Source: Escherichia coli (lineage in GTDB: Bacteria > Pseudomonadota > Gammaproteobacteria > Enterobacterales > Enterobacteriaceae). Taken from it: a stretch of DNA of 64,000 bases. The translations under genes were made by a program, and so were the position numbers. This document shows positions 13,084 to 64,000 of this stretch, piece by piece (the stretch's first letter is position 1; every line of letters begins with the position of its first letter). Under the pieces are notes generated by a model. The model saw only the letters and a program-made list of their open reading frames with translations, was not told the origin of the DNA and did not search any database. The stretch lies in NCBI RefSeq assembly GCF_013315695.1, contig NZ_CP054353.1; one strand, given 5' to 3'.

Positions 13084-15593
13084 GCGACCATAACGCACAA
13101 CTGGCGTACCCGTGGAACGCCCCGCTACCGGTTATCGATCCTGAAACGTTCGGCAGAGCACAGCCAACCGCATTACGCCAGGCCATTCAGAGCTACATCA
13201 ACGAGGACATTCGCATTGATGCCAGACTGGATGAAGAAACCGTCGCCTTTCTGACAACCACAGACGAAGGGAAGCGAATTAATTCGCACCTTCACCACAA
13301 CGAAGAGCGTCGGATCAGACTGGAAAAACTGGCGCGGCACAAACGCGAGAATCCGCCCACGGTGGTATCGGAAGCCATGGCAGAACTTCGCGCCCTGCCC
13401 TCGTTTCTTGGCAACGCGCTCATTCGTGATCTGGCGCGTTTAAACCGCAAACAGCAAAGCGCCCGCCATGAAGGCGTGAAAAACAACAATACACACGTGG
13501 CTGATAACTTTGTTCGCCGTGGACTGCGCACACGCCTGAAACGCATCGAACAGGTGAATGAATGCTTCGCCACGACGGCATTCAAAGCCACCGCAGCACG
13601 CCATCGCCTTGATGAATTACTCATGCTGCCACAACTCAACCGTGATCAAATTCAGCGCCTTGCCACACTAACGGCGGCGGCATTTTCCACCGAACTGGAA
13701 CGCATATGTGATGAAGTTACTGAGCGGACAGGAAAAGGCGACGATAACCTGTTTACCTGGTTGCTGACTTACCAGCAGCTGGCGCGCATGGCAATAAAAC
13801 TGGGCGTGAACCCACCATACTGGCCGTCACTCGAGATCAGACGTGACCGCCGCACGGCACCAGACCCTGAACTGGTACCGGGCGCGGTAATGCGTATCAC
13901 CTGCGCCACCTGGTGGAACAACCAGCTGCGCCACCTCGCTGATCTCTGGCGGGAGGAATTACTGCGTGCCGCCGGAAGAGTATCGCGCAAGGCATCCCCC
14001 TACATCAGCCATGAGTCACTCCAGGAATTCCGGGAGAAACGCCAGCGCACCCGTGATTTTCTCAAAAGCTGGGACATTGAAAACGAAGACGGTGAACGCC
14101 TGAGCCTGGAGGACGTGTACTGGTCAGGGCTGGGGAATCCGCGCAACCGCCGCAACGAGATGATGGCCTGCGTCAGAGGGATGGAACAGGTCGCCGAATC
14201 GCGTGGTGACTCCGCGTTCTTCGTGACAGTGACCTGCCCTTCCCGCTTTCACAGCGTAAACGAGGACGGCAGCCTGAACCCGAAATACAACGGTGCCACC
14301 GTGCGCGATGCCAGTGATTATCTGGTTTACGACGTCTTTGCAGCTGCAAGAAAAAAACTCAACAAAGAAGGCCTGAGCTGGTACGGGGTGCGCACCGTTG
14401 AGCCACACCATGACGGCACACCGCACTGGCACATGCTGGTATTCACCGCCCCGGACAATGAAGAACGCATCATTGAAATCATGCGTGACGCAGCAATCAA
14501 ATCAGATCGCGCAGAACTGGGGAATGATATTTCTCCGCGCTTCAAGTGCGAAAAAATCGACCCGGCAAAAGGCACACCGGCAAGCTACATCGCAACCTAT
14601 ATTGGCAAGAACCTGGACGCCAGCACCTTTCACGACAATGACCCGAAAACCGGCAAACCTTACGCCGATAAAGAATCGGGAAAAACCATGGCGGAAACCG
14701 TGGAAAACGCCATTGCCTGGGCGAGTCTCCACCGCATCCGGCAGTTCCAGTTCTTCGGTATCCCGCCCCGCCAGGTATGGCGTGAACTCCGCCGCCTTGC
14801 CGGACAAATGGAGCGTAACCCCGCATCACCGAAGCGCCTGGACCATGACGACATTGACGCCATTCTGGCCGCCGCTGACGTGGGGTGTTTTGCCACCTAC
14901 ATCAACCGTCAGGGCGGCGTGCTCATTCCACGCAACCTGTACCTGATCCGCACCGCATACGAAACCGCAGATGAGGCCAACGACTACGGCGAATTCCCGC
15001 AGCGCATCTACGGAATTTGTGCCCCGTCGCTCGGCGAGCGCTACACCATCTGCACCCATCCGGACGAGTGGAAACTGGTCAGAAAAGAAGCGAAAGCCGA
15101 CAACAGCACGGACGAGGATTTTGACGTTGGGGGCGGCTTCGCCGCACCTTGGACTCGTGGCAATAACTGTCGCCATGATGAAAAAACAGACACCGAAGAG
15201 GGTAAAAACCCACCACCGGAAACCAGGAAAGAACAAAAACTGGTCGTCCCGGAAGGTGATTTGGGCGAGTGGTTAAGGTCACTGACCCCCACAGAGCGAA
15301 AACAACTCACCAGGCAGCTGAAAGATGCGCCATCTGACACAAAAACCGTGAAAACCGGCGGCCCCACCACGCCCGATGACGTCATACATGTGCGTACCGC
15401 ATTGCCGCTGGCTGACGTCACCACCACCGTGATCAAGTCGGCACTGAGCACGACGGGCGAGGAGCTGCACAGTGGCGCGGCACTTTCCGTACACAGAGGT
15501 GCACGCGTTCGCCTGCCTGACGGGCGGATTGTGCACTGGGATGAGAAATCACGAAGCCTGGTGGCAGCAGATCAACCGGAGGTGAACCCATGA
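13080..15593 (+). CDS. gpA: Rolling-circle replication initiator endonuclease, P2 gpA family
   Basis: Motifs AYPWNAP, VEPHHDGTPHWHMLVF (HUH) and YIATYIGKN (catalytic Tyr pair) as in P2 A. Start MSDHNAQ is coupled to the upstream stop. Confidence 0.93.
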   Translation: MSDHNAQLAYPWNAPLPVIDPETFGRAQPTALRQAIQSYINEDIRIDARLDEETVAFLTTTDEGKRINSHLHHNEERRIRLEKLARHKRENPPTVVSEAMAELRALPSFLGNALIRDLARLNRKQQSARHEGVKNNNTHVADNFVRRGLRTRLKRIEQVNECFATTAFKATAARHRLDELLMLPQLNRDQIQRLATLTAAAFSTELERICDEVTERTGKGDDNLFTWLLTYQQLARMAIKLGVNPPYWPSLEIRRDRRTAPDPELVPGAVMRITCATWWNNQLRHLADLWREELLRAAGRVSRKASPYISHESLQEFREKRQRTRDFLKSWDIENEDGERLSLEDVYWSGLGNPRNRRNEMMACVRGMEQVAESRGDSAFFVTVTCPSRFHSVNEDGSLNPKYNGATVRDASDYLVYDVFAAARKKLNKEGLSWYGVRTVEPHHDGTPHWHMLVFTAPDNEERIIEIMRDAAIKSDRAELGNDISPRFKCEKIDPAKGTPASYIATYIGKNLDASTFHDNDPKTGKPYADKESGKTMAETVENAIAWASLHRIRQFQFFGIPPRQVWRELRRLAGQMERNPASPKRLDHDDIDAILAAADVGCFATYINRQGGVLIPRNLYLIRTAYETADEANDYGEFPQRIYGICAPSLGERYTICTHPDEWKLVRKEAKADNSTDEDFDVGGGFAAPWTRGNNCRHDEKTDTEEGKNPPPETRKEQKLVVPEGDLGEWLRSLTPTERKQLTRQLKDAPSDTKTVKTGGPTTPDDVIHVRTALPLADVTTTVIKSALSTTGEELHSGAALSVHRGARVRLPDGRIVHWDEKSRSLVAADQPEVNP

Positions 15594-15994
15594 CACGATT
15601 CCATTGCGTACTCCAGCGCCATGATTTCAGCACCATCATGAGTGGACGCATTCCGGCACTGACGCTGAGCGGCGTCAGTGTTCGGCCACAGCCAGGCGAC
15701 GAACTGGAGATCACGATCGCAAACCCCGATCGCAGCACAGATACCGTCATGACCGACATCCTGACTGCAAGAATCAACGCCGACAGAAGCGCATTCATCG
15801 TTGCCGTGCGTCCTCGTCGCGCCATATCAGAGCCTGAACCACTGACCCCCGTCGGAAAAATCATGCAGGCATACCACGAAAAACAGACCAGAAAACTCAA
15901 TGAAGAGCTGGCAAGAACGTTGGCCGTCGTTAACCGAAAAGCGGCAATTGCCCGCTATGTGCATTCAGCCGCCAACAGGCAATCACGCAGGTAA
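15590..15994 (+). CDS. Hypothetical protein (134 aa)
   Basis: ATGA overlap with the gpA stop. Confidence 0.6.
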   Translation: MTRFHCVLQRHDFSTIMSGRIPALTLSGVSVRPQPGDELEITIANPDRSTDTVMTDILTARINADRSAFIVAVRPRRAISEPEPLTPVGKIMQAYHEKQTRKLNEELARTLAVVNRKAAIARYVHSAANRQSRR

Positions 15995-19087: not shown

Positions 19088-20821
19088 TCAGAACTCCATT
19101 GCAAAGCCACGATTATCCTCACGCTCTGCGCCGATTGGCTCATTGATAACAGCAAGCATGGTTGCCCAGGCGAGATCACCATGACTGACACCCCGGGAGC
19201 GGTCAGTGTCATAGGTGATATAGCCGCCGGGCGTCTGTATTTTTCGCACCGATGAAAATGCCTGTATCAGGTCGCGTTCGCTGCGGTCATACTCCCACCG
19301 TCCGGCGCGGACCACCTGAAGCATCTTCATGACCAGCGCCCGTTTGGACGCGATATTGAAGTTGTACGGAACAGCCAGGGGGAAGAGCTTTTTCACAATC
19401 TGATAAACCCCTTCGCCGTTACCACCGGTCACATCAATACCAATATGTTTCACGTTATATTTCTTCGTGTACTCCTCGATCAGGGCAGCTTGTTGTTCAA
19501 ACTCCATACCCTGAACCCTGACTGTCTCCACCGTGCGAAAACGCCCACCGGCAACAAGGGGTGGCACGCACACCGACAGCGCCCCGCAGTCCCCTTTCCC
19601 GCTGCTGCCGTTGGCATCATAGCCAAGCCAGACCTCCCGAACGCCCATCGGACGGGACGCAAAAGGTTTCCAGTCAGGCCATTCATCGTAACCATCCACG
19701 CCGCAGCCGATGAGCGCATTCAGGCTGAAGGCCGCCTCACCATCACGGACAAATTCGCACATGTACAGATTGCGAAATTCACTTTCTGTATTCTCATCGC
19801 GAATATCATCAATACTGGTGAACTGCCATCCGTTAGCGACAGCATCCTCGATAGTGACAATCTGCCGCCACGTTTTATCGGGAAAGAGCACGCCCCCCTT
19901 CAGGTGGGCATGTGAAACATCAAATTCATTGCGTTTTGAGCGCGGCCGCTCGCTGTTCCAGCGGTCCCCTGTCCAGAACTGATACGCCTCATGCGTCTCA
20001 CCTGACGGCGTAGAGAAGTAAGTGCGCGTAAGCCCTTTCAGCGTCGCCATTGCCCCGGCAACCTTCCTGAGGTTCACAAAGTTACTGACCCAGAAAAATT
20101 CGTCGAATTTCAGATGACCGGTATAGGACTGCGCGGTGGCAGCTGACGTACCGAGGAAGTGCAGCTCGGCACCGTTGGACAGCACAATTTTGTCGCCGCC
20201 TTTGAGCTCAACATCCACCTCCTGAGCAGCCTGCTGAATGAAATGCTTGAACTGATACGCCTGACGACGGGAGGCGGACAAAAATATCTGGTTGCGCTGA
20301 TACCCGGCGGAGACATCATCACGCAGTGCATCAAGGAGCGCCTCGCGCGCAAAATACCAGGTCGCACCAATCTGACGCGACTTCAGGATCATGCGGTTGC
20401 GGTGGTGGCGGTTTTCGTACCATTCGCGTTGATGCCAGGCCAGTGACGGCAGGATTTTTTCCCTGAGCGCAGCAATCTGTTCTTCGGTGAAGTGATTTTT
20501 CAGTCTGCGTTTACGGGGCTTTTTACCGGAAACGGCATGCTCTCCCTGACTGTCATTCAGTTTTTTCAGCTGGCGCGTGAGAAGGTCAATTTCCTTAAAA
20601 TCGCTGCCGCTTTTCTCTGTTTTTGTGGTGAGCTGGATGAGGCGCGCATCAATGGACTGGGTGACCCGCTGGATCGGGGGGGTGGCATCCCACTCATCGC
20701 GTTTTTTCCATGAGTAAATCGTGTTCTGGCTGATCCCCATCAGTTGCGAGATTTCCGCAGGCGTGTACCCTTGCCAGTAAAGTTGTCTCGCTCCTATGCG
20801 GACAAATGCATCCTGAATCAT
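19088..20821 (-). CDS. gpP: Terminase large (ATPase) subunit (P2 gpP family)
   Basis: 577 aa. The N-terminus ...LYWQGYTPAEISQLMGISQNTIYSWKKRDEWD is as in P2 P. Confidence 0.93.
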   Translation of the reverse strand: MIQDAFVRIGARQLYWQGYTPAEISQLMGISQNTIYSWKKRDEWDATPPIQRVTQSIDARLIQLTTKTEKSGSDFKEIDLLTRQLKKLNDSQGEHAVSGKKPRKRRLKNHFTEEQIAALREKILPSLAWHQREWYENRHHRNRMILKSRQIGATWYFAREALLDALRDDVSAGYQRNQIFLSASRRQAYQFKHFIQQAAQEVDVELKGGDKIVLSNGAELHFLGTSAATAQSYTGHLKFDEFFWVSNFVNLRKVAGAMATLKGLTRTYFSTPSGETHEAYQFWTGDRWNSERPRSKRNEFDVSHAHLKGGVLFPDKTWRQIVTIEDAVANGWQFTSIDDIRDENTESEFRNLYMCEFVRDGEAAFSLNALIGCGVDGYDEWPDWKPFASRPMGVREVWLGYDANGSSGKGDCGALSVCVPPLVAGGRFRTVETVRVQGMEFEQQAALIEEYTKKYNVKHIGIDVTGGNGEGVYQIVKKLFPLAVPYNFNIASKRALVMKMLQVVRAGRWEYDRSERDLIQAFSSVRKIQTPGGYITYDTDRSRGVSHGDLAWATMLAVINEPIGAEREDNRGFAMEF

Positions 20822-20887
20822 GCGCCCCCCTTCATTAGCTGAAACAAAGAGTAAACGCCCCGCCCTTTACCGGATATTCGGCGCCGT

Positions 20888-20905
20888 TGTAGCGGTGTTC
20901 TTACA
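20888..20905. promoter_or_regulatory. Ogr/Delta-type late activator box TGT-N12-ACA between the P and O operons
   Basis: tgtagcggtgttcttaca, with a -10-like CATGAT 44-49 bp to the right. Confidence 0.6.
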
Positions 20906-20977
20906 ACAACCCCGCCTTGAGATGCCATCCCCTCCCCCCGCATGATGGAATACACCATTCCGGAAAGGAGATTTTTC

Positions 20978-21814
20978 ATGGCATCCAAAAACGCGCCAGT
21001 ACGAAAAAAATTCCGCGTCGCCGTCTCGGGCACAACCATCGACGGACGTGAAATTTCAGGCCAGATGTTGCGTCAGGCCGCAGAGAACTACGACCCGGAC
21101 GTGTGGGGATCACGGGTGAACGTGGAGCATATGCTTTCACGAATGCCGTCCAGTGAATTCAGTGCTGTGGGGGATGTGATTTCACTCTCCACCAAAGAAA
21201 TCACGGAAGGCAAGCTGGCCGGTCGCACCGCACTGTATGCCGAAATAGAGCCAACCCACCGTATGACGGAGATGTTGCGAGACGGCAAGAAAATCTACTC
21301 AAGCATCGAGCTTGAACCCAACATTGATGCCGTTGGCGGACCTTACGTAACCGGCCTGGCAATGACCGACACCCCGGCAAGTCTCGGCACTGAACGACTG
21401 AAATTTGCCGCTCAACAGCGCGCCAGCATCATGCAGTTCAGCAACCGCGCCGGTGAAGTTGCCATGTTCACCGAATGCATGGAAGCGGAACTGGTGGCAT
21501 CCGTCCAGGACAGCAGCGAAGAAAGCCGGAAGTGGTTTTCGCGCGTCATGGCACTCATCAGCAAAACCCGTGACACGGACAGCGAGCAGTTCGCTCACGT
21601 GCGCGAAGCCGTCGAGAGCATTGCCACGGAACAGGCCGGCCTTCTGGATCGCTTCCATGCGATGGAAGAGCAACAGCGCAGTGATAAGGCATCAATGGAA
21701 GCCCTGACCCGCGAACTGACTGAACTGAAGGCGCAGCTGAAAACCGAAGACGCAGACAAGGAACAGCGCTTTGCTTCAACCGGTGGCAACAGCCACGCCC
21801 TGGCTGATTTTTAA
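20978..21814 (+). CDS. gpO: Capsid scaffold protein (P2 gpO family)
   Basis: Start MASKNAPVRKKFRVAVSGTTIDGREI with an aaggag SD. GLAMTDTPASLGTE is as in P2 O. Confidence 0.92.
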   Translation: MASKNAPVRKKFRVAVSGTTIDGREISGQMLRQAAENYDPDVWGSRVNVEHMLSRMPSSEFSAVGDVISLSTKEITEGKLAGRTALYAEIEPTHRMTEMLRDGKKIYSSIELEPNIDAVGGPYVTGLAMTDTPASLGTERLKFAAQQRASIMQFSNRAGEVAMFTECMEAELVASVQDSSEESRKWFSRVMALISKTRDTDSEQFAHVREAVESIATEQAGLLDRFHAMEEQQRSDKASMEALTRELTELKAQLKTEDADKEQRFASTGGNSHALADF

Positions 21815-21829
21815 CAGAGGAACAAAATC

Positions 21830-22924
21830 ATGGGAAACCGCTTAACGCTTTCTCGCGAAGGCCGCAGCAATCTTGAGGCCTATCTTGCACGCCAGGCAGA
21901 ACTGGCCGAAACCACCGTAGAACGACTGGGGAAAACCTTCAGCGTTGATCCGGCTGTTCATCAGAAGATGGAAAACGCCATCAAAGAGAGCGACGAGCTG
22001 CTGAAAAGAATCAACAGCATCGGAGTTGACGATCAGGAGGGTGAAAAAGTCCTGGTGAATACCAGCGGCCCCATCGCCAGCACCAACTCAACCAGTGACG
22101 GCGTGAAGCGACGCAATCCAGCTGACGTCTCTGATCTGGCATCACGTCGTTATCGCTGCGAACAGGTGAACTACGACACTTTCATCAGCTACGCACAGAT
22201 TGACGCGTGGAGCAGCCAGAAAAACTTCCAGCAACTGCTGAGTGCACAAATCACCCGACAGATTGCACTGGACCGTATCATGATTGGCTTTAACGGTGAG
22301 TCGCACGCCCTCATCTCCGATCGTTCTGCCAACCAGAAACTTCAGGACGTTAACACCGGGTGGCTGAAACACATCCGTGAACACGCCGCGACGCGTGTCG
22401 TGAAGGCAATGACGCTGACCCGTCGCGATCATGAAAACAAACTGGTTGCAAAAGGCGACTACGGCAACGCTGACGCGATGGTTAACGACATTCGCTCTTC
22501 CGTACTGGATGAGTGGCACAAGGACGCCCCGGATCTGGTTGTTGTCATGGGCCGCAACCTGTTCAACACGCTGCGTCTGCCTATGATTAACGCCATCAGC
22601 ACCACCAACCCGAACACGGAGCTGGTCGCTGGACAGCTGATTACAGCCTCCCGCACCATTGGCGCGCTGCCAACCTTCTTTGCGCCGTACTTCCCGGACG
22701 ATGCCATGCTGATCACGTCGTTCAGCAACCTTTCGGTGTACTTCCAGAAAGGGTCACTGCGTCGCTTCATCCGTGAAGAGCCGGAGTACAACCGCATCGC
22801 CACCTACCAGTCCATGAACGACTGCTACGTGGTGGAAGACTACGGCAAATGTGCGCTGATTGAGGGTATTTCTTTCGCCGGTGAAGATCCGGAAGACAAG
22901 GAAGAGCCAGAAGAACGGGCGTAA
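21830..22924 (+). CDS. gpN: Major capsid protein (P2 gpN family)
   Basis: 364 aa, in the position after the scaffold gene. Confidence 0.92.
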   Translation: MGNRLTLSREGRSNLEAYLARQAELAETTVERLGKTFSVDPAVHQKMENAIKESDELLKRINSIGVDDQEGEKVLVNTSGPIASTNSTSDGVKRRNPADVSDLASRRYRCEQVNYDTFISYAQIDAWSSQKNFQQLLSAQITRQIALDRIMIGFNGESHALISDRSANQKLQDVNTGWLKHIREHAATRVVKAMTLTRRDHENKLVAKGDYGNADAMVNDIRSSVLDEWHKDAPDLVVVMGRNLFNTLRLPMINAISTTNPNTELVAGQLITASRTIGALPTFFAPYFPDDAMLITSFSNLSVYFQKGSLRRFIREEPEYNRIATYQSMNDCYVVEDYGKCALIEGISFAGEDPEDKEEPEERA

Positions 22925-31118: not shown

Positions 31119-31644
31119 GACATCATTGCTGCCCCCTTCCGCCACAGAATTCATACGCAAAGCAGAGCGTGGCGGTGAACGGTTAATGGCGCTGCCCGTC
31201 GGTATTCGCCATCTCTGGGATCCTGACTCATGCCCCGTGCAGCTGCTGCCTTATCTGGCATGGGCGTTGTCGGTTGACAGATGGGATCAGAACTGGCCGG
31301 AGGAAACCAAGCGGCAGGTCATTCGCGATTCATGGGATATTCACCGGCATAAAGGCACCATCAAAGCCATTCGCCGGGTTGTTGAGCCGTTTGGTTATGT
31401 GATCAGGGTAACCGAATGGTGGGAAACCAACGAAACACCAGGAACATTCCGGCTGGATATCGGCGTACTGGATATCGGGATCACCGAAGAGATGTACAGG
31501 GAAGTCGAACGCCTGGTGGCCGACGCGCGCCCGGTCAGTCGCCACCTGATCGGCCTGAACATCATTCAGGACGTACCGGGTTACATGTACACCGGCGGCA
31601 TCGCCTACGACGGCGACATCATTACAATTTATCCGGCAGAGTAG
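31111..31644 (+). CDS. gpI: Baseplate/tail protein (P2 gpI family)
   Basis: 177 aa, with LLPYLAWALSVD as in P2 I. Confidence 0.88.
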   Translation: MNKTSLLPPSATEFIRKAERGGERLMALPVGIRHLWDPDSCPVQLLPYLAWALSVDRWDQNWPEETKRQVIRDSWDIHRHKGTIKAIRRVVEPFGYVIRVTEWWETNETPGTFRLDIGVLDIGITEEMYREVERLVADARPVSRHLIGLNIIQDVPGYMYTGGIAYDGDIITIYPAE

Positions 31645-58529: not shown

Positions 58530-60806
58530 TTAATGCGCTGCTTCCGCCTTGTGCTTTTGTGCACTCTGGAATCCGTAAGTCAGCTCATTTTTCTCTTTAT
58601 CCAGCGCAACCGTCACCTGACCGCCGTCCACCAGCGAACCAAACAACAGTTCGTTGGCGAGCGGTTTTTTCAGGTTGTCCTGGATGACACGCGCCATCGG
58701 ACGTGCGCCCATTGCCCGGTCGTAACCTTTCTCGGCCAGCCAGTTACGCGCTTCCTGGCTCACTTCCAGAGAAACACCTTTCTGATCCAGCTGAACCTGC
58801 AACTCGACGATGAATTTATCCACTACCTGATGGATCACGTCGGTGGAGAGATGATCGAACCAGATAATGTTGTCGAGACGGTTACGAAACTCCGGCGTAA
58901 AGATCTTCTTGATCTCTTCCATCGCATCGGTGCTGTTGTCCTGGTGGATAAGACCAATCGATTTACGCTCAGTTTCTCGTACCCCAGCGTTGGTGGTCAT
59001 CACCAATACCACGTTACGGAAGTCCGCTTTGCGTCCGTTGTTATCGGTCAGCGTACCGTTGTCCATCACCTGCAACAGAATATTGAACACGTCCGGATGC
59101 GCTTTCTCGATTTCGTCCAGCAGCAGTACCGCGTGCGGATGCTTGATTACCGCATCGGTCAGCAGCCCCCCCTGATCAAAACCAACGTATCCCGGAGGCG
59201 CACCAATCAGACGGCTGACGGTATGGCGTTCCATATACTCGGACATATCAAAGCGCAGAAGCTCAATGCCCAAAGCTTTCGAAAGCTGTACCGTCACCTC
59301 TGTTTTCCCGACCCCGGTAGGGCCGGCAAACAGGAACGAACCGACCGGTTTATGTTCGTGACCTAAACCTGCACGCGCCATCTTAATGGCTTCAGTCAGC
59401 GCCTCAATGGCTTTATCCTGACCGAAGACCAGCATTTTCAGGCGATCGCCGAGGTTTTTCAGGGTATCGCGGTCACTCTGAGAAACACTCTTCTCTGGAA
59501 TGCGTGCAATACGGGCCACCACGGACTCAATATCCGCCACATTAACGGTTTTCTTGCGTTTGCTGACCGGCATCAGACGCGCGCGAGCGCCCGCTTCGTC
59601 GATAACATCAATCGCTTTATCCGGCAGATGACGATCGTTAATGTATTTCACCGCCAACTCTACCGCCGCACGCACCGCTTTTGCGGTATAACGCACGTCG
59701 TGGTGCGCTTCATACTTCGGTTTCAGGCCATTGATGATTTGAACAGTTTCTTCGATCGACGGTTCAGTAATATCAATTTTCTGGAAGCGACGCGCCAGAG
59801 CACGGTCTTTCTCGAAAATGTTGCTGAACTCCTGATAGGTTGTCGAACCAATTACGCGAATTTTACCGCTGGAGAGCAGCGGTTTGATCAGGTTAGCCGC
59901 ATCGACCTGGCCACCAGACGCTGCACCCGCACCGATAATGGTGTGGATCTCATCAATAAACAGGATGCTGTTAGTGTCCTGCTCCAGCTGCTTGAGCAAC
60001 GCTTTAAAACGTTTTTCAAAGTCGCCGCGATATTTTGTGCCCGCTAACAGAGAACCGATATCGAGAGAGTAAATCGTACAGTCAGCCATCACTTCCGGCA
60101 CATCGCCCTGAACAATTCGCCAGGCAAGACCTTCCGCAATCGCGGTTTTACCGACACCAGACTCCCCCACCAGCAGCGGGTTGTTTTTACGGCGACGGCA
60201 GAGAACCTGAATAGCACGCTCCAGCTCCTTCTCACGACCAATCAGTGGGTCGATTCCGCCCACTCGCGCAAGCTGATTCAGGTTCGTCGTGAAATTCTCC
60301 ATACGTTCCTCCCCACCAGCTTGTTCTTCGCTGTTTGGCTGGCTGCCAGGATCAGAAGACTGTGTCGGCTCGTCTTTACGCGTGCCATGAGAGATAAAGT
60401 TCACCACATCGAGACGGCTGACTTCATGTTTACGCAACAGATATGCCGCCTGCGACTCCTGTTCGCTAAAGATAGCGACCAGAACGTTTGCACCGGTAAC
60501 CTCATTGCGACCGGAGGACTGGACATGGAAGACCGCACGTTGCAGTACACGCTGAAAACTCAGCGTCGGCTGTGTGTCGCGCTCCTCTTCACTGGCAGGC
60601 AGAACGGGTGTGGTTTGTTCAATAAAGGCTTCCAGTTCCTGACGGAGCGCAACCAAATCCACAGAACACGCTTCCAGCGCCTCCCGGGCAGATGGGTTAC
60701 TGAGCAGCGCCAGTAACAAGTGCTCGACGGTCATAAACTCATGACGGTGCTCGCGCGCTCTGGCGAAAGCCATATTTAAACTGAGTTCCAGTTCTTGATT
60801 GAGCAT
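58530..60806 (-). CDS. clpA: ATP-dependent Clp protease ATPase subunit ClpA
   Basis: [24 protein letters not shown]..., 758 aa, with two AAA+ modules. Confidence 0.98.
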
Positions 60807-60836
60807 AGGCACCTCCCCCAATTTTTATGCCTGCAT

Positions 60837-61157
60837 TCAGGCTTTTTCTAGCGTACACAGCAATGGATGCTCATTCTCCCTCGCGTACTTGTTCACCATC
60901 GCCACTTTGGTTTCTGCAACCTCGGCGGTAAAGACTCCGCAAATGGCCTTCCCCTGGTAGTGAACAGCGAGCATCAATTGCGTTGCACGTTCTACATCAT
61001 AAGAAAAGAATTTTTGTAACACGTCAATAACAAACTCCATCGGAGTGTAATCATCATTGACTAATATCACTTTATACATAGATGGCGGTTTTAGCGCGTC
61101 GCGAACTTTTTCTTCCGCCAGTTGATCAAAGTCCAGCCAGTCGTTCGTTTTACCCAT
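60837..61157 (-). CDS. clpS: ClpA adaptor ClpS
   Basis: 106 aa, [43 protein letters not shown]... Confidence 0.98.
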
Positions 61158-61330
61158 TGTCAGTTATCATCTTCGGTTACGGTTATCGGCAGAACGCCCT
61201 GCCGCTGACAAGAGCTTATTTGCCTGACCAATCTACTCCACATGATAGATAACTATCATTTATAACATCTCATTGATTAGTCTTTATTTTTCATTGTGTT
61301 ACAAATAACAGCTCTGTCAAAAACAGCGAA

Positions 61331-61727
61331 ATTAACTACACCATTAACTACACCGTTTCACGAACAATATCGAACAACCACGAACAAAGATCAACACGCT
61401 TTAACCGTTATCATTTTCCGGCTATCCGTTATGAAGCTGGTGGATGTTCCCCGATATGGGGATCCCCACCTACCGGAATTTTTGCCAGGTTAAATGTTAA
61501 CCTCTGCCCTGTTAACATTTTTACCAAAAAGGTAGTTAACATTTTTTGCACGCAACCAGATGAATCATAAAGAAAAAATCAACAACAACGCTTCATCAGG
61601 CAGTTAACATGTTAACTACTACGAAACGGTAATTTTTTCTCTGCGTGAGAGGGGGCGCGGTGTCCAGCTTATTCGTTGTTCGTGGCTAACCACTCCCCCC
61701 CCATGCCGGATTTTTTTTCCGGTTAAC
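61331..61727. repeat. Iteron-like field of three short repeat families
   Basis: ATTAACTACACC x2 (61331, 61344). CGAACAA x3 at exact 10-bp phase (61361, 61371, 61381) plus one inverted copy (61676-61682). GTTAAC x6 (61496, 61511, 61535, 61603, 61611, 61722). Confidence 0.8.
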
Positions 61728-61748
61728 TGTTAATCAGGCTGGTGGGTT

Positions 61749-62037
61749 TTACATACCCTTGATCACCGTAATGATGATCCAGATCTGCACATTTCCACCA
61801 ATGGTGGAAAAGCCCACAGCAGGCCGCCCAGCCTCCACCAATGGGGTAAAAGCATCAACCGTAACGAAAGTCGTTATGGTTGCCACCGATACCCCAAATT
61901 TGGGTATCACGAGTAAGCCCCAAAATCTGGGTGTTACTCTTACCACCCAAACTACGGGTAGTTTCCGTAGTTTCATGGTCGAGTTGCAGATCTGCAACTC
62001 CCCCATTAACCACAGGCGAATTTCCGCCTTCGGTCAT
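61749..62037 (-). pseudogene. Small ORF split by a frameshift (60-aa plus ~38-aa parts)
   Basis: MTEGGNSPVVNGGVADLQLDH...GNHNDFRYG* continues in the +1 frame as VTVDAFTPLVEAGRPAVGFSTIGGNVQIWIIITVIKGM*. It contains the 20-bp palindrome at 61981-62000. Confidence 0.3.
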
Positions 62038-62293
62038 TCCTTAATCATCTGCGTAATCATAATGATTATTCAGCAAGCGCAATTTTGCGCTTTGCTTAAA
62101 GTTCAGCGAGTTACCGCGCCGACTTCCTCAAATTGAGGTTTCCGAAAATATCAGCGGGTTAGCGATTAAGCTGATCATTAATTAAACTGCGAAAATTTCG
62201 TAGTTTGTGACTGTCTTTCAGGCAGCTTGTTAACAGTCCTCAGAAGCGAGGGATGTAGCCACCCATTTTTGGTCCGTCGGGAATATCAACCAG

Positions 62294-62575
62294 TTACCGC
62301 CGCAACCGCTCCGGCTTCTTCCAGTGGTACGTTATTTTCTCCTTCTCCCGATACATCTCCACGCGGCGACGGTAGGCCAGCAACTCAAGAACTCTGGTTC
62401 GTATGTTGCGCATATCCACGCCATTAAGTTCTATACCATCACGGCGCATCACCTCCGCAACAACACGCGCATAATTTTCAGCGGTCACGCTGTCCGGCTG
62501 CGTGGCCTGTTCGTCAACCTGCTGGCTGATTCCGGCAACGCGGCGGATTAATCCCAGTATTTCGGCTTCTGTCAT
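62294..62575 (-). CDS. Hypothetical protein (93 aa) adjacent to cos-1
   Basis: Clean ORF MTEAEILGLIRRVAG...; its start lies 65 nt from the cos-1 cohesive-end sequence. Confidence 0.55.
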   Translation of the reverse strand: MTEAEILGLIRRVAGISQQVDEQATQPDSVTAENYARVVAEVMRRDGIELNGVDMRNIRTRVLELLAYRRRVEMYREKEKITYHWKKPERLRR

Positions 62576-62609
62576 TGTGCCCCCATCGTTCTGATAGTCT
62601 GGTGTCGTC

Positions 62610-62835
62610 GGGTCCTTCCTGGAATTATGGCCCGTTACGGGGCGGCGACCTCGCGGTTTTTCGCTATTTATGAGATTTTTTGAGGGGGTGGTTGTTGTTT
62701 AATTGTTTGGTATATCTAATTGATAAGTAAGGTAAAAATAAAATAAATACAACAACCTTACGATGTATTTTGATGTCATTAATGTGAAAAAATTCAATGA
62801 TATCAAATGGTTTTGTAAAAACACATGGTTGTTGT
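62610..62835 (+). other. Lambda-type cos site 1 (cosQ-cosN-cosB-like)
   Basis: gggtccttcctggaattatggcccgttacg|GGGCGGCGACCT(62640-62651)|cgcggtttttcgctatttatgag, followed by GGTTGTTGT at 62690(+), 62749(-) and 62827(+). Confidence 0.7.
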
Positions 62836-63028
62836 ATCGCGTATTTGATGGCGTAACAGAAAGTGATTTTTAACTTTACCGCTCTGTAACTACGGATTAT
62901 TCCATGCTGGCACGGAGAACGGCTACGGCATGACGCCACCCAGCCTATACAGCACAGTAAAGCCGATAAATTGTTAATCACGCGCAGCAATGCGTGTGAT
63001 TTTTGCACACTTCCGGTTAACGGGTACG

Positions 63029-63206
63029 ATGTCCGGTTTTAGTGTCTGTTTTTTGCGCATGTCCGGTTCATAGAAAGCATGTTTTTATATTTTTCATATG
63101 GTTAACTTGCAGAGAAACCGGACATGGATCCCGGAAAATTTTCATAAATAGTGAAAACGCGCGAGGTCGCCGCCCCGTAACGGGTCCATATGCCGGAAAG
63201 GACCCG
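63029..63206 (-). other. Lambda-type cos site 2 (cosQ-cosN-cosB-like), opposite orientation
   Basis: The minus strand reads cgggtcctttccggcatatggacccgttacg|GGGCGGCGACCT(63175-63164)|cgcgcgttttcactatttatgaaaattttccgg. Then ATGTCCGGTT motifs follow at 63116-63125 (inverted), 63059-63068 and 63029-63038. Confidence 0.75.
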
Positions 63207-63207
63207 T

Positions 63208-63233
63208 AAAAAAAAGCCGGATTTCTCCGGCCT
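63208..63233 (-). terminator. Intrinsic terminator between the 137-aa gene and cos-2
   Basis: The minus strand reads ggccggag-aaa-tccggc plus T8. Confidence 0.7.
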
Positions 63234-63237
63234 TGTC

Positions 63238-63651
63238 TCAGATGGTTTTCAGTATGCGATCGATGTCGCCGTCATCGCCCTGGTTTCTGCCATCGTACGC
63301 CATGCCAGCTGATACGGCTTGCGGGCTGTGCATGTCCATAAAGTTTTCAAAGGCTGCGGTAAGCTCTGGTGCAACCTTTGGGCGCTCCTGCTCTATGGTC
63401 ATGTTCAGGATTTCACGAGCATTATCGACGCTAATACATGGCACGTTTGCCATTGCACGTAACAGCGGCTGATAGTCGTTATGTTCATGAAGCGCCATAA
63501 TCGCATCAGCGCGCGGCTTGTCCTGTTCTTCCAGTTTGTTGAGTTGATATACGGCCTCGTAGGTTGATAAACCTCTGTCAGCCATTGCCCGCGCTTCTGC
63601 TTTAAATTTACTCGCCAGCGGTAGCGCCATGATGCTTTCATTCGTTGCCAT
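63238..63651 (-). CDS. Hypothetical helical protein (137 aa), last gene before cos-2
   Basis: Clean ORF MATNESIMALPLASKFKAEARAMADRGL... No recognisable motif. Confidence 0.6.
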   Translation of the reverse strand: MATNESIMALPLASKFKAEARAMADRGLSTYEAVYQLNKLEEQDKPRADAIMALHEHNDYQPLLRAMANVPCISVDNAREILNMTIEQERPKVAPELTAAFENFMDMHSPQAVSAGMAYDGRNQGDDGDIDRILKTI

Positions 63652-63663
63652 CGTTTCCCCTGC

Positions 63664-63999
63664 TTATCGCGCCAGCGGCTGAACGGATACGCCAGAACCC
63701 GCAAAGGCGGCGCATTTTTTCGCGTCAGTGTCGGCGCTCTCAGGCCAGTTTACGGCGGCGATATTAAATATCCCCGTCTTGTAACACTGTGCTGATTTCT
63801 GCTTTGACGTGTCCACGGGGTACGAAGTCAGATAAACAGCCTTGCCAGATTCCTGACCATCCCACGGCTTAAACTCGCCATTGTCCGCCAGCATCAGCGG
63901 GGTAAATTCCTGAATAACGCCAGCATCAGCGGCAAAATGTACCAGCGTCGTGGATACCTGCTGACTGCCTGCAAATAACTCAATGTATGGAGTGTCCAT
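63664..63999 (-). CDS. Head decoration protein, lambda gpD family
   Basis: 111 aa. TPLML, WDG, YKTGIF, WPE and KK..AFAG blocks align with remembered lambda gpD (TPLML..WDG..YKSGTF..WPE..KKRTAFAG). The start is 1 nt from the window edge. Confidence 0.75.
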   Translation of the reverse strand: MDTPYIELFAGSQQVSTTLVHFAADAGVIQEFTPLMLADNGEFKPWDGQESGKAVYLTSYPVDTSKQKSAQCYKTGIFNIAAVNWPESADTDAKKCAAFAGSGVSVQPLAR

Positions 64000-64000
64000 A

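Follow-up and report, generated by a model that had tools for sequence, protein, structure and literature searches.

An EcCICFT073-type phage-inducible chromosomal island probably lies next to clpS in an Escherichia coli genome

Genes and features at the clpS junction

We analyzed a stretch of 64,000 nucleotides from the Escherichia coli contig NZ_CP054353.1 (assembly GCF_013315695.1), here called the window, in which the host gene clpS is followed by DNA that does not belong there in K-12. With a probability of about 93%, this DNA (positions 61260-64000) is the integrase-distal portion of a phage-inducible chromosomal island (PICI) of the Gram-negative EcCICFT073 type, a satellite of lambdoid phages, inserted at the attachment (att) core ATAACTATCAT. 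The features around the junction are as follows.

58530-60821 (-): clpA, host gene
60837-61157 (-): clpS, intact host gene flanking the insertion; an open reading frame (ORF) annotated as clpS in the matching genomes
61158-61248: native DNA upstream of clpS, kept with zero mismatches to K-12
61249-61259: att core ATAACTATCAT, clpS-side copy, an 11-mer repeated at the integrase side in relatives
61243-61259: extended imperfect repeat TGATAGATAACTATCAT around the att core
61260-61449: attachment arm at the integrase-distal end of the island; 93% identity to the corresponding end of the island EcCIIHE3034
61333-61342 and 61345-61354: tandem TAACTACACC repeats within the arm
61360-61366 and 61380-61386: ACGAACA repeats within the arm

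Comparison with the clpS-yljB-cspD region of K-12 MG1655 showed agreement from clpS to position 61259 and no similarity beyond; the BLAST alignment stretches to 61263 with one mismatch. Since the match to K-12 runs through 61259 and divergence is complete thereafter, the breakpoint is 61259/61260. The original prediction, made from the letters of the window, had recognized the foreign DNA correctly but let it begin near 61290, about 30 bp too far to the right. The element was inserted 102 bp upstream of the ATG of clpS, and these 102 bp are native. The G+C content changes from 52.8% on the left of the junction to 47.0% on the right. In K-12, yljB lies upstream of clpS on the same strand, and the insertion parts the two genes. 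A tRNA-Ser(GGA) gene is located further left of clpA in the window.

The gap between clpS and cspD in K-12 was measured as 322 bp, in agreement with the 0.3 kb assumed in the original prediction, where no CspD-like ORF had been found in the 2.8 kb past clpS. A tblastn search of the entire window with K-12 CspD gave only a chance match (E = 6.9), and cspD is thus absent from all 64 kb, beyond just the last 2.8 kb. A promoter-like hexamer pair at 61320-61293 (-) faces clpS; the promoter scan of which it is part returned no more sites than shuffled sequence, and nothing is drawn from it.

Complete relatives of the island

A megablast search with positions 60837-64000 against 5426 complete E. coli genomes identified five genomes that cover at least 80% of the query. 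NCTC9112 and CEA601S are 99.8% and 99.9% identical to the island part of the window, respectively, and NCTC9112 differs from it by four bases and one 1-bp indel. In both genomes the island measures 11.15 kb between its two 11-bp core copies. Its far end carries AlpA, a tyrosine integrase and the second core copy, after which come yljB and cspD, with macB next as in K-12. The integrase, the far junction and cspD itself are thus found in these relatives where the original prediction had placed them, past the end of the window.

Starting from clpS, the island consists of approximately 1 kb of non-coding DNA, a gene for a product of 93 amino acids (aa), two cos sites, a 137-aa gene, a gpD-like gene and a gpE-like major capsid gene. 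The order continues with a 68-aa gene, perC, ssb, a DUF927 primase gene, a DUF4222 gene (RgdR family) and an Icd-like gene, and it ends with a YlcI/YnfO gene on the opposite strand, alpA and the tyrosine integrase gene. The gene assignments in the relatives are backed by Pfam and PHROG scans: the integrase contains the Phage_integrase and Arm-DNA-bind_3 domains, a Phage_AlpA gene is located beside it, and the DUF927 primase of NCTC9112 matches phrog_1139 (E = 7.5e-177). All annotated genes except one in NCTC9112 and two in CEA601S are transcribed from one strand, towards clpS-clpA. None of the annotated genes in the two islands codes for lysis, tail, portal or large-terminase proteins. Every island gene in CEA601S is annotated as intact.

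At the same site, the island of JNEC-KY203 (15143-15840 and 20766-22117 of the compared sequence) is broken by an IS1. No alpA or integrase gene is annotated there before the compared sequence ends, and its last part consists of Mu-like transposase genes. JNEC-KY203 is an example of decay in these islands.

To estimate frequencies in the same 5426 genomes, we used a 300-bp stretch of K-12 as a probe for the empty site and positions 61158-61449 of the window as a probe for the junction. The empty site is uninterrupted in 5058 genomes and the junction of the window is present in 365 (approximately 7%), so that the window does not show the normal clpS-cspD intergenic region of the species. Empty and occupied sites together account for 5423 of the 5424 genomes with any match. 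The same junction was found at 365 of the 366 interrupted clpS-yljB sites; essentially every interruption of this site is an island of this type. Part of the NCTC9112 island is present in 2829 genomes and at least 80% of it in only two, which indicates that the island family is widespread and mosaic.

The attachment core and the arm repeats

The 11-mer ATAACTATCAT is found again at the integrase-side junction in NCTC9112 (31570-31580 of the compared region), CEA601S and IHE3034, and as a single copy in K-12. The duplicated att core for which the original prediction had recommended a search is thus present at both island ends in the relatives; the window itself shows one junction only. Allowing one mismatch, the core extends to the 17-bp repeat TGATARATAACTATCAT. 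The core shares bases with the TGA stop codon of yljB, a gene of 24 codons that is kept intact because the integrase-side core copy restores its end. Two published islands, EcCIIHE3034 and EcCI18098, are listed at cspD-clpS with the core ATGATAGTTAT (Fillol-Salom et al. 2018, ISME J, Table S1, PMC6092414). This published core is the exact reverse complement of positions 61249-61259.

The repeats of the attachment arm, TAACTACACC / TGACTACACC, are found again at both ends of EcCICFT073 and, in direct orientation, close to int in NCTC9112 (31422-31443). Because they recur at both island ends and the integrase of a relative has an Arm-DNA-bind_3 domain, these repeats and the ACGAACA repeats are probably arm-type binding sites of the integrase or the excisionase. 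In the original prediction, the repeats near 61290-61700 had been read as iterons. We rejected them as replication iterons: in NCTC9112, about 12 GTYGTCCCA iterons are located within 360 bp after the primase gene, in a part of the island outside the window, and the junction-proximal repeats recur at both ends. These repeats are more likely to represent integrase arm sites together with packaging-site repeats.

A 26-bp sequence, AATTAACTACACCATTAACTACACCG, was observed near both island ends (window 61333-61354; NCTC9112 31422-31443; L003 884-935). It is the reverse complement of the sequence given as the "att site core" of EcCIDI14 in Table S1 of the 2018 paper (PMC6092414). It has the appearance of an internal arm repeat belonging to this integrase family, and not of a chromosomal core.

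Island genes in the window

The remaining features in the visible 2.7 kb of the island include three ORFs, all intact, and the two cos sites.

62294-62575 (-): conserved 93-aa PICI gene, the last gene of the island; phrog_1561, E = 3e-57
62609-62680 (+): left lambda-type cos (cosQ-cosN; cosN 62640-62651), aligned with lambda, PhiR12_1 and both cos sites of EcCICFT073
62681-63134: inter-cos segment, AT-rich (38.8% G+C), with an rppA remnant and a phage-type cosB
63135-63206 (-): right lambda-type cos (cosN 63164-63175), an inverted copy of the left cos
63213-63234 (-): terminator-like hairpin after the 137-aa gene, its stem of 9 bp contains 5 G-C pairs, and a T run comes after it
63238-63651 (-): 137-aa PICI gene with a Nu3-like scaffold-type domain; phrog_1999, E = 4e-64
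63664-63999 (-): head decoration protein, lambda gpD-like; Pfam HDPD, E = 1e-17; phrog_49

The original prediction had named cos sites and a gpD-like gene, and the coordinates and the HDPD match above bear this out. The gpD-like protein is 97% identical to the product of c1500 in CFT073; c1500 was described as the head decoration gene and c1499 as the capsid homolog (Fillol-Salom 2018, PMC6092414). The 137-aa protein is 93% identical to its CFT073 counterpart, which is encoded by the gene after the decoration gene there, and it also matches the C-terminal part of phrog_53, a head maturation protease (positions 494-567 of 583, E = 7e-10). The 93-aa product is 85% identical to the EcCICFT073 product at the same position. 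Its gene is intact in the window, whereas the NCTC9112 copy is frameshifted by a 1-bp insertion (window 62491 versus NCTC9112 21655-21656).

The cos sites and the segment between them

Both cosN sequences (GGGCGGCGACCT) are identical to the 12-nt cohesive end of lambda and are flanked by cosQ-like sequence. The two cos sites form an inverted repeat with 86% identity over 73 bp. The cosB side of the left cos runs to the right to approximately 62758 and is 79% identical to the cos preceding the terS-like gene of EcCIIHE3034. On the other side, a phage-type cosB with three CCGGACAT repeats is located at approximately 63030-63160. Over 184 bp, this cosB region (63030-63214) displayed 94% identity to the cos located immediately upstream of Nu1 in the lambdoid phage PhiR12_1. 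The same PhiR12_1-like cosB sequence is carried by EcCICFT073. The paper on EcCICFT073 recognized no phage cosB in the island, the comparison having been made with lambda and phi80.

The tblastn searches identified no intact Rpp or TerS gene between the cos sites; the TerS-like protein of IHE3034 gave no match, and RppA matched with residues 123-144 only. This rppA remnant comprises the 22 last codons (62879-62944, -) and adjoins approximately 190 bp of AT-rich DNA without a family match. The same Rpp-less cos segment was found in 13 of the 5426 genomes. Because it occurs at several chromosomal positions in these genomes, the segment appears to have spread among them.

Compared with the island that JNEC-KY203 carries at this site, the segment 62609-63206 is inverted (97.8% identity over 600 bp, with collinear flanks); its cos-proximal part also runs the opposite way to that of EcCICFT073. 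The cos-bounded segment thus occurs in nature in both orientations. The inversion changes which cosB adjoins which cosQ-cosN. We found no mention of such an inversion in Fillol-Salom 2018/2019 or in the other literature searched, an absence that does not prove novelty.

A non-coding block resembling Shiga toxin phage DNA

Between the attachment arm and the 93-aa gene, two further features were recorded.

61485-61700 (+): repeat-dense non-coding block, similar to the HNH-terS region of Shiga toxin (Stx) phages; approximately 80% identity over 175 bp to phages
61779-62010: run of short palindromes (inverted repeats I1-I4, I8 and I21) without a supported ORF

The ORFs in 61296-62290 and between the cos sites match no PHROG family, and these stretches are therefore treated as non-coding. 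An Rfam scan of 61100-64000 gave nothing meaningful, with one match at E = 0.93. Examples of the palindromes in 61779-62010 are CCACCAATGGTGG, CCCCAAATTTGGG and TGCAGATCTGCA. Positions 61713-61846 are 95.5% identical to EcCICFT073.

The block at 61485-61700 contains GTTAAC(A) repeats and a 44-nt stretch that equals the phage sequence at 43 of 44 bases. Eight of the 16 GTTAACA matches in the window fall within 61495-62235. The matches are to the Stx1/Stx2-converting lambdoid phages YYZ-2008, BP-4795 and 1717 and to approximately 90 other phage records; in YYZ-2008, the matching stretch is located between the genes for an HNH endonuclease and the terminase small subunit. The repeats and the long stretch are conserved relative to the phages whereas the spacers between them differ, a pattern that would fit protein-binding sites. 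A version of the block at least 95% identical to that of the window, taken to be the PICI copy, is present in about 47 genomes, and about 1240 genomes carry only a version less than 90% identical, as in phages. The block is absent from EcCICFT073 and EcCIIHE3034, and positions 61450-62070 have no counterpart in IHE3034.

We consider 61485-61700, with modest confidence, a candidate for an additional (third) packaging site. Alignment with the HNH-terS junction of HK97, used to locate a cleavage site in the block, gave no usable similarity. None of the matching phage records has its termini inside the block; all matches are internal. The PICI literature searched contains no mention of an HNH-type cos in E. 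coli PICIs, which again is no proof of novelty. Three features of this island were not found described in that literature: the absence of Rpp, the invertible cos segment and the packaging block that resembles Stx phages.

Taken together, these features allow a tentative and rather doubtful reading, namely that the variant has dispensed with Rpp and TerS and carries several helper-type packaging signals, including an invertible cos cassette of 0.6 kb and a copy of the Stx-phage HNH-terS region. Inversion of the cassette would exchange the PhiR12-phage-type and the PICI-type cosB beside each cosQ-cosN. If the sites work, two unrelated terminase systems, including those of Shiga toxin phages, could package the island directly, and the inversion could switch the packaging direction or the choice of helper.

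Identity of the element

The island agrees with published PICIs in its core, which equals that of the cspD-clpS PICIs, in its size within the range of approximately 8-12 kb, in the genes on one strand, in an integrase at one end with an AlpA-type regulator next to it, in a primase of its own with iterons 3' of the gene, and in cos sites of the helper type; the integrase, AlpA and the primase were seen in the relatives only. The feature that it lacks is an Rpp protein or TerS homolog. However, this does not disqualify it, because terS is present in some but not all PICIs (Fillol-Salom 2018, PMC6092414). At the DNA level, at most 2% of the island is present in any one phage record. Portal, protease, TerL, Psu, Sid and Delta are not among the annotated products of the relatives' islands, and the general Pfam and PHROG scans gave none of the last three, although these scans were not targeted at P4 proteins.

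Several observations weigh against this assignment. The window covers only 2.7 kb of the island, and the integrase, AlpA and primase genes lie beyond it. The unseen 8.4 kb could be truncated, as in JNEC-KY203, and its content is not specifiable because the family is highly mosaic; even the islands of NCTC9112 and CEA601S share only 81% of their sequence, at 97% identity. In addition, the variant lacks an intact gene for Rpp or TerS. In EcCICFT073, the rppA gene is needed for efficient transfer (Fillol-Salom et al.), and an Rpp-less element could be impaired or could take a different route.

The original prediction left the choice between an island and a prophage, and of these the island edge stands, as that of a PICI-type phage satellite. 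A lambdoid prophage, whole or defective, whose edge places head genes (D, E, Nu3) and cos beside clpS would account for the lambda-type cosN, the gpD-like, gpE-like and Nu3-like genes and the cosB region shared with PhiR12_1 at 94% identity. Such a prophage would be expected to be about 40-60 kb long with immunity, replication, lysis, head and tail modules, whereas the near-identical element of the relatives is 11.15 kb long and lacks genes for portal, terminase, tail and lysis. The gene order E-D-Nu3-cos is also unlike that of lambda, the DNA shared with any phage record stays within 2% of the island, and published PICIs show the same succession, with int and alpA first, then the primase, and then the capsid-like genes and cos. 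A prophage is thus largely refuted and very improbable. A P4-like satellite, with an integrase, a primase and a P2-type helper, is more improbable still. Its P4-type integrase (Arm-DNA-bind_3 and a tyrosine recombinase domain) would be accounted for, as would AlpA, the Icd-like gene and the large primase, which are common to P4 relatives. Nevertheless, the NCTC9112 and CEA601S islands list no Psu, Sid or Delta and the general scans found none, with no search targeted at them; the cos sites are of the lambda type and not the P2 type, and the published comparison sets these islands apart from P4 (PMC6092414).

The major capsid homolog and the decoration and scaffold-like proteins could also point to a capsid-forming PICI (cf-PICI), which makes its own small capsids and borrows tails only. 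The cf-PICI set comprises capsid, protease, portal, connectors, TerS and TerL, of which only the capsid is found here, with the decoration and scaffold-like proteins; the complete relatives encode neither a portal nor a protease, head-tail connector or large terminase. Moreover, deletion of the capsid or decoration homolog in EcCICFT073 left transfer within approximately twofold of the parent, and the authors report no phenotype for the c1499 deletion (Fillol-Salom et al. 2018, PMC6092414). We therefore regard this reading as scarcely credible. An inert PICI remnant that is no longer mobile is unlikely, yet deserves serious weight. It is suggested by the reduction of rppA to 22 codons and the absence of a terS-like gene, by the frameshifted 93-aa gene in the closest relative NCTC9112 and by the island broken by IS1 at the same site. 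On the other hand, the 93-aa, 137-aa and gpD-like ORFs of the window are intact, as are both cos sites, the arm repeats and the core; all island genes in CEA601S are annotated as intact, and the Rpp-less cos segment at several positions in 13 genomes suggests spread.

Proposed mechanism and implications

As an EcCICFT073-type PICI, the island would have been inserted by its tyrosine integrase at ATAACTATCAT, overlapping the yljB stop codon, between clpS and cspD. The insertion would move yljB and cspD approximately 11.2 kb away, past the window end, and leave clpS, yljB and cspD intact. If the cycle resembles that of EcCICFT073, induction would come from a helper prophage, AlpA and Int would cut the island out via the duplicated core, and the primase-replicase would copy it from the iterons beside the primase gene. 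The helper terminase would then cut the lambda-type cos sites, and the island would be packaged into capsids made by the helper. In EcCICFT073, Rpp retargets the helper TerS to the island's own cosB (Fillol-Salom et al.). The Rpp-less variant might be packaged via the phage-type cosB, via the Stx-phage-like site, or inefficiently.

As such, the finding is an ordinary one, a further case of a published satellite family at a site that is also published. It marks clpS-cspD as a PICI hotspot, which is useful for annotation, as RefSeq still labels such islands as hypothetical or phage genes. Islands of the family carry regulators of the PerC and RgdR types, encoded outside the window, which are reported to affect the type III secretion system of the enterocyte effacement locus (LEE) in enterohemorrhagic E. 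coli (EHEC). If confirmed, a satellite with Stx-phage packaging sites would tie the spread of PICIs to the induction of Shiga toxin phages.

Comparison with known systems

The island family shares with the SaPIbov5-type cos islands of the SaPI group (Staphylococcus aureus pathogenicity islands) a helper-type cos and a capsid homolog in place of a terminase subunit of its own. The SaPIbov5-type islands are unrelated in sequence, host and helpers, and no role in size redirection has been shown for the E. coli capsid homolog (PMC6092414).

EcCICFT073, the prototype Gram-negative PICI, has the same architecture, with two inverted lambda-type cos sites that were shown to be functional (Fillol-Salom 2018, PMC6092414). 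The products of c1499 (capsid) and c1500 (decoration) and the 137-aa and 93-aa products are 85-97% identical, and the TAACTACACC arm repeats occur in both islands. Induction, excision, replication and high-frequency helper-dependent transfer with helper interference were shown for EcCICFT073 only (Fillol-Salom 2018/2019). It differs in its attachment site, ycfD-phoQ with the core GGACATATTT, and its integrase shows an identity of only 77% to the NCTC9112 integrase. Its rppA gene is intact with 144 aa, whereas the window keeps the last 22 codons, and its cos-bounded segment has the orientation opposite to that of the window.

The proteins of the relatives are 77-97% identical to those of EcCICFT073 and EcCIIHE3034, except for AlpA (approximately 61% to CFT073) and the primase (approximately 61%, in the N-terminal 227 residues). 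EcCIIHE3034 has a 180-aa terS-like gene between its cos sites, which the window does not have, and a DUF927-type primase and perC are unannotated there whereas both are annotated in the relatives of the window island. Its integrase is 93% identical to that of NCTC9112, its clpS-side arm is 93% identical over 61158-61449, and its gene order is the same as that of the window-type island. Both EcCIIHE3034 and EcCI18098 occupy the same attachment site, with the same 11-bp core, as the island in the window.

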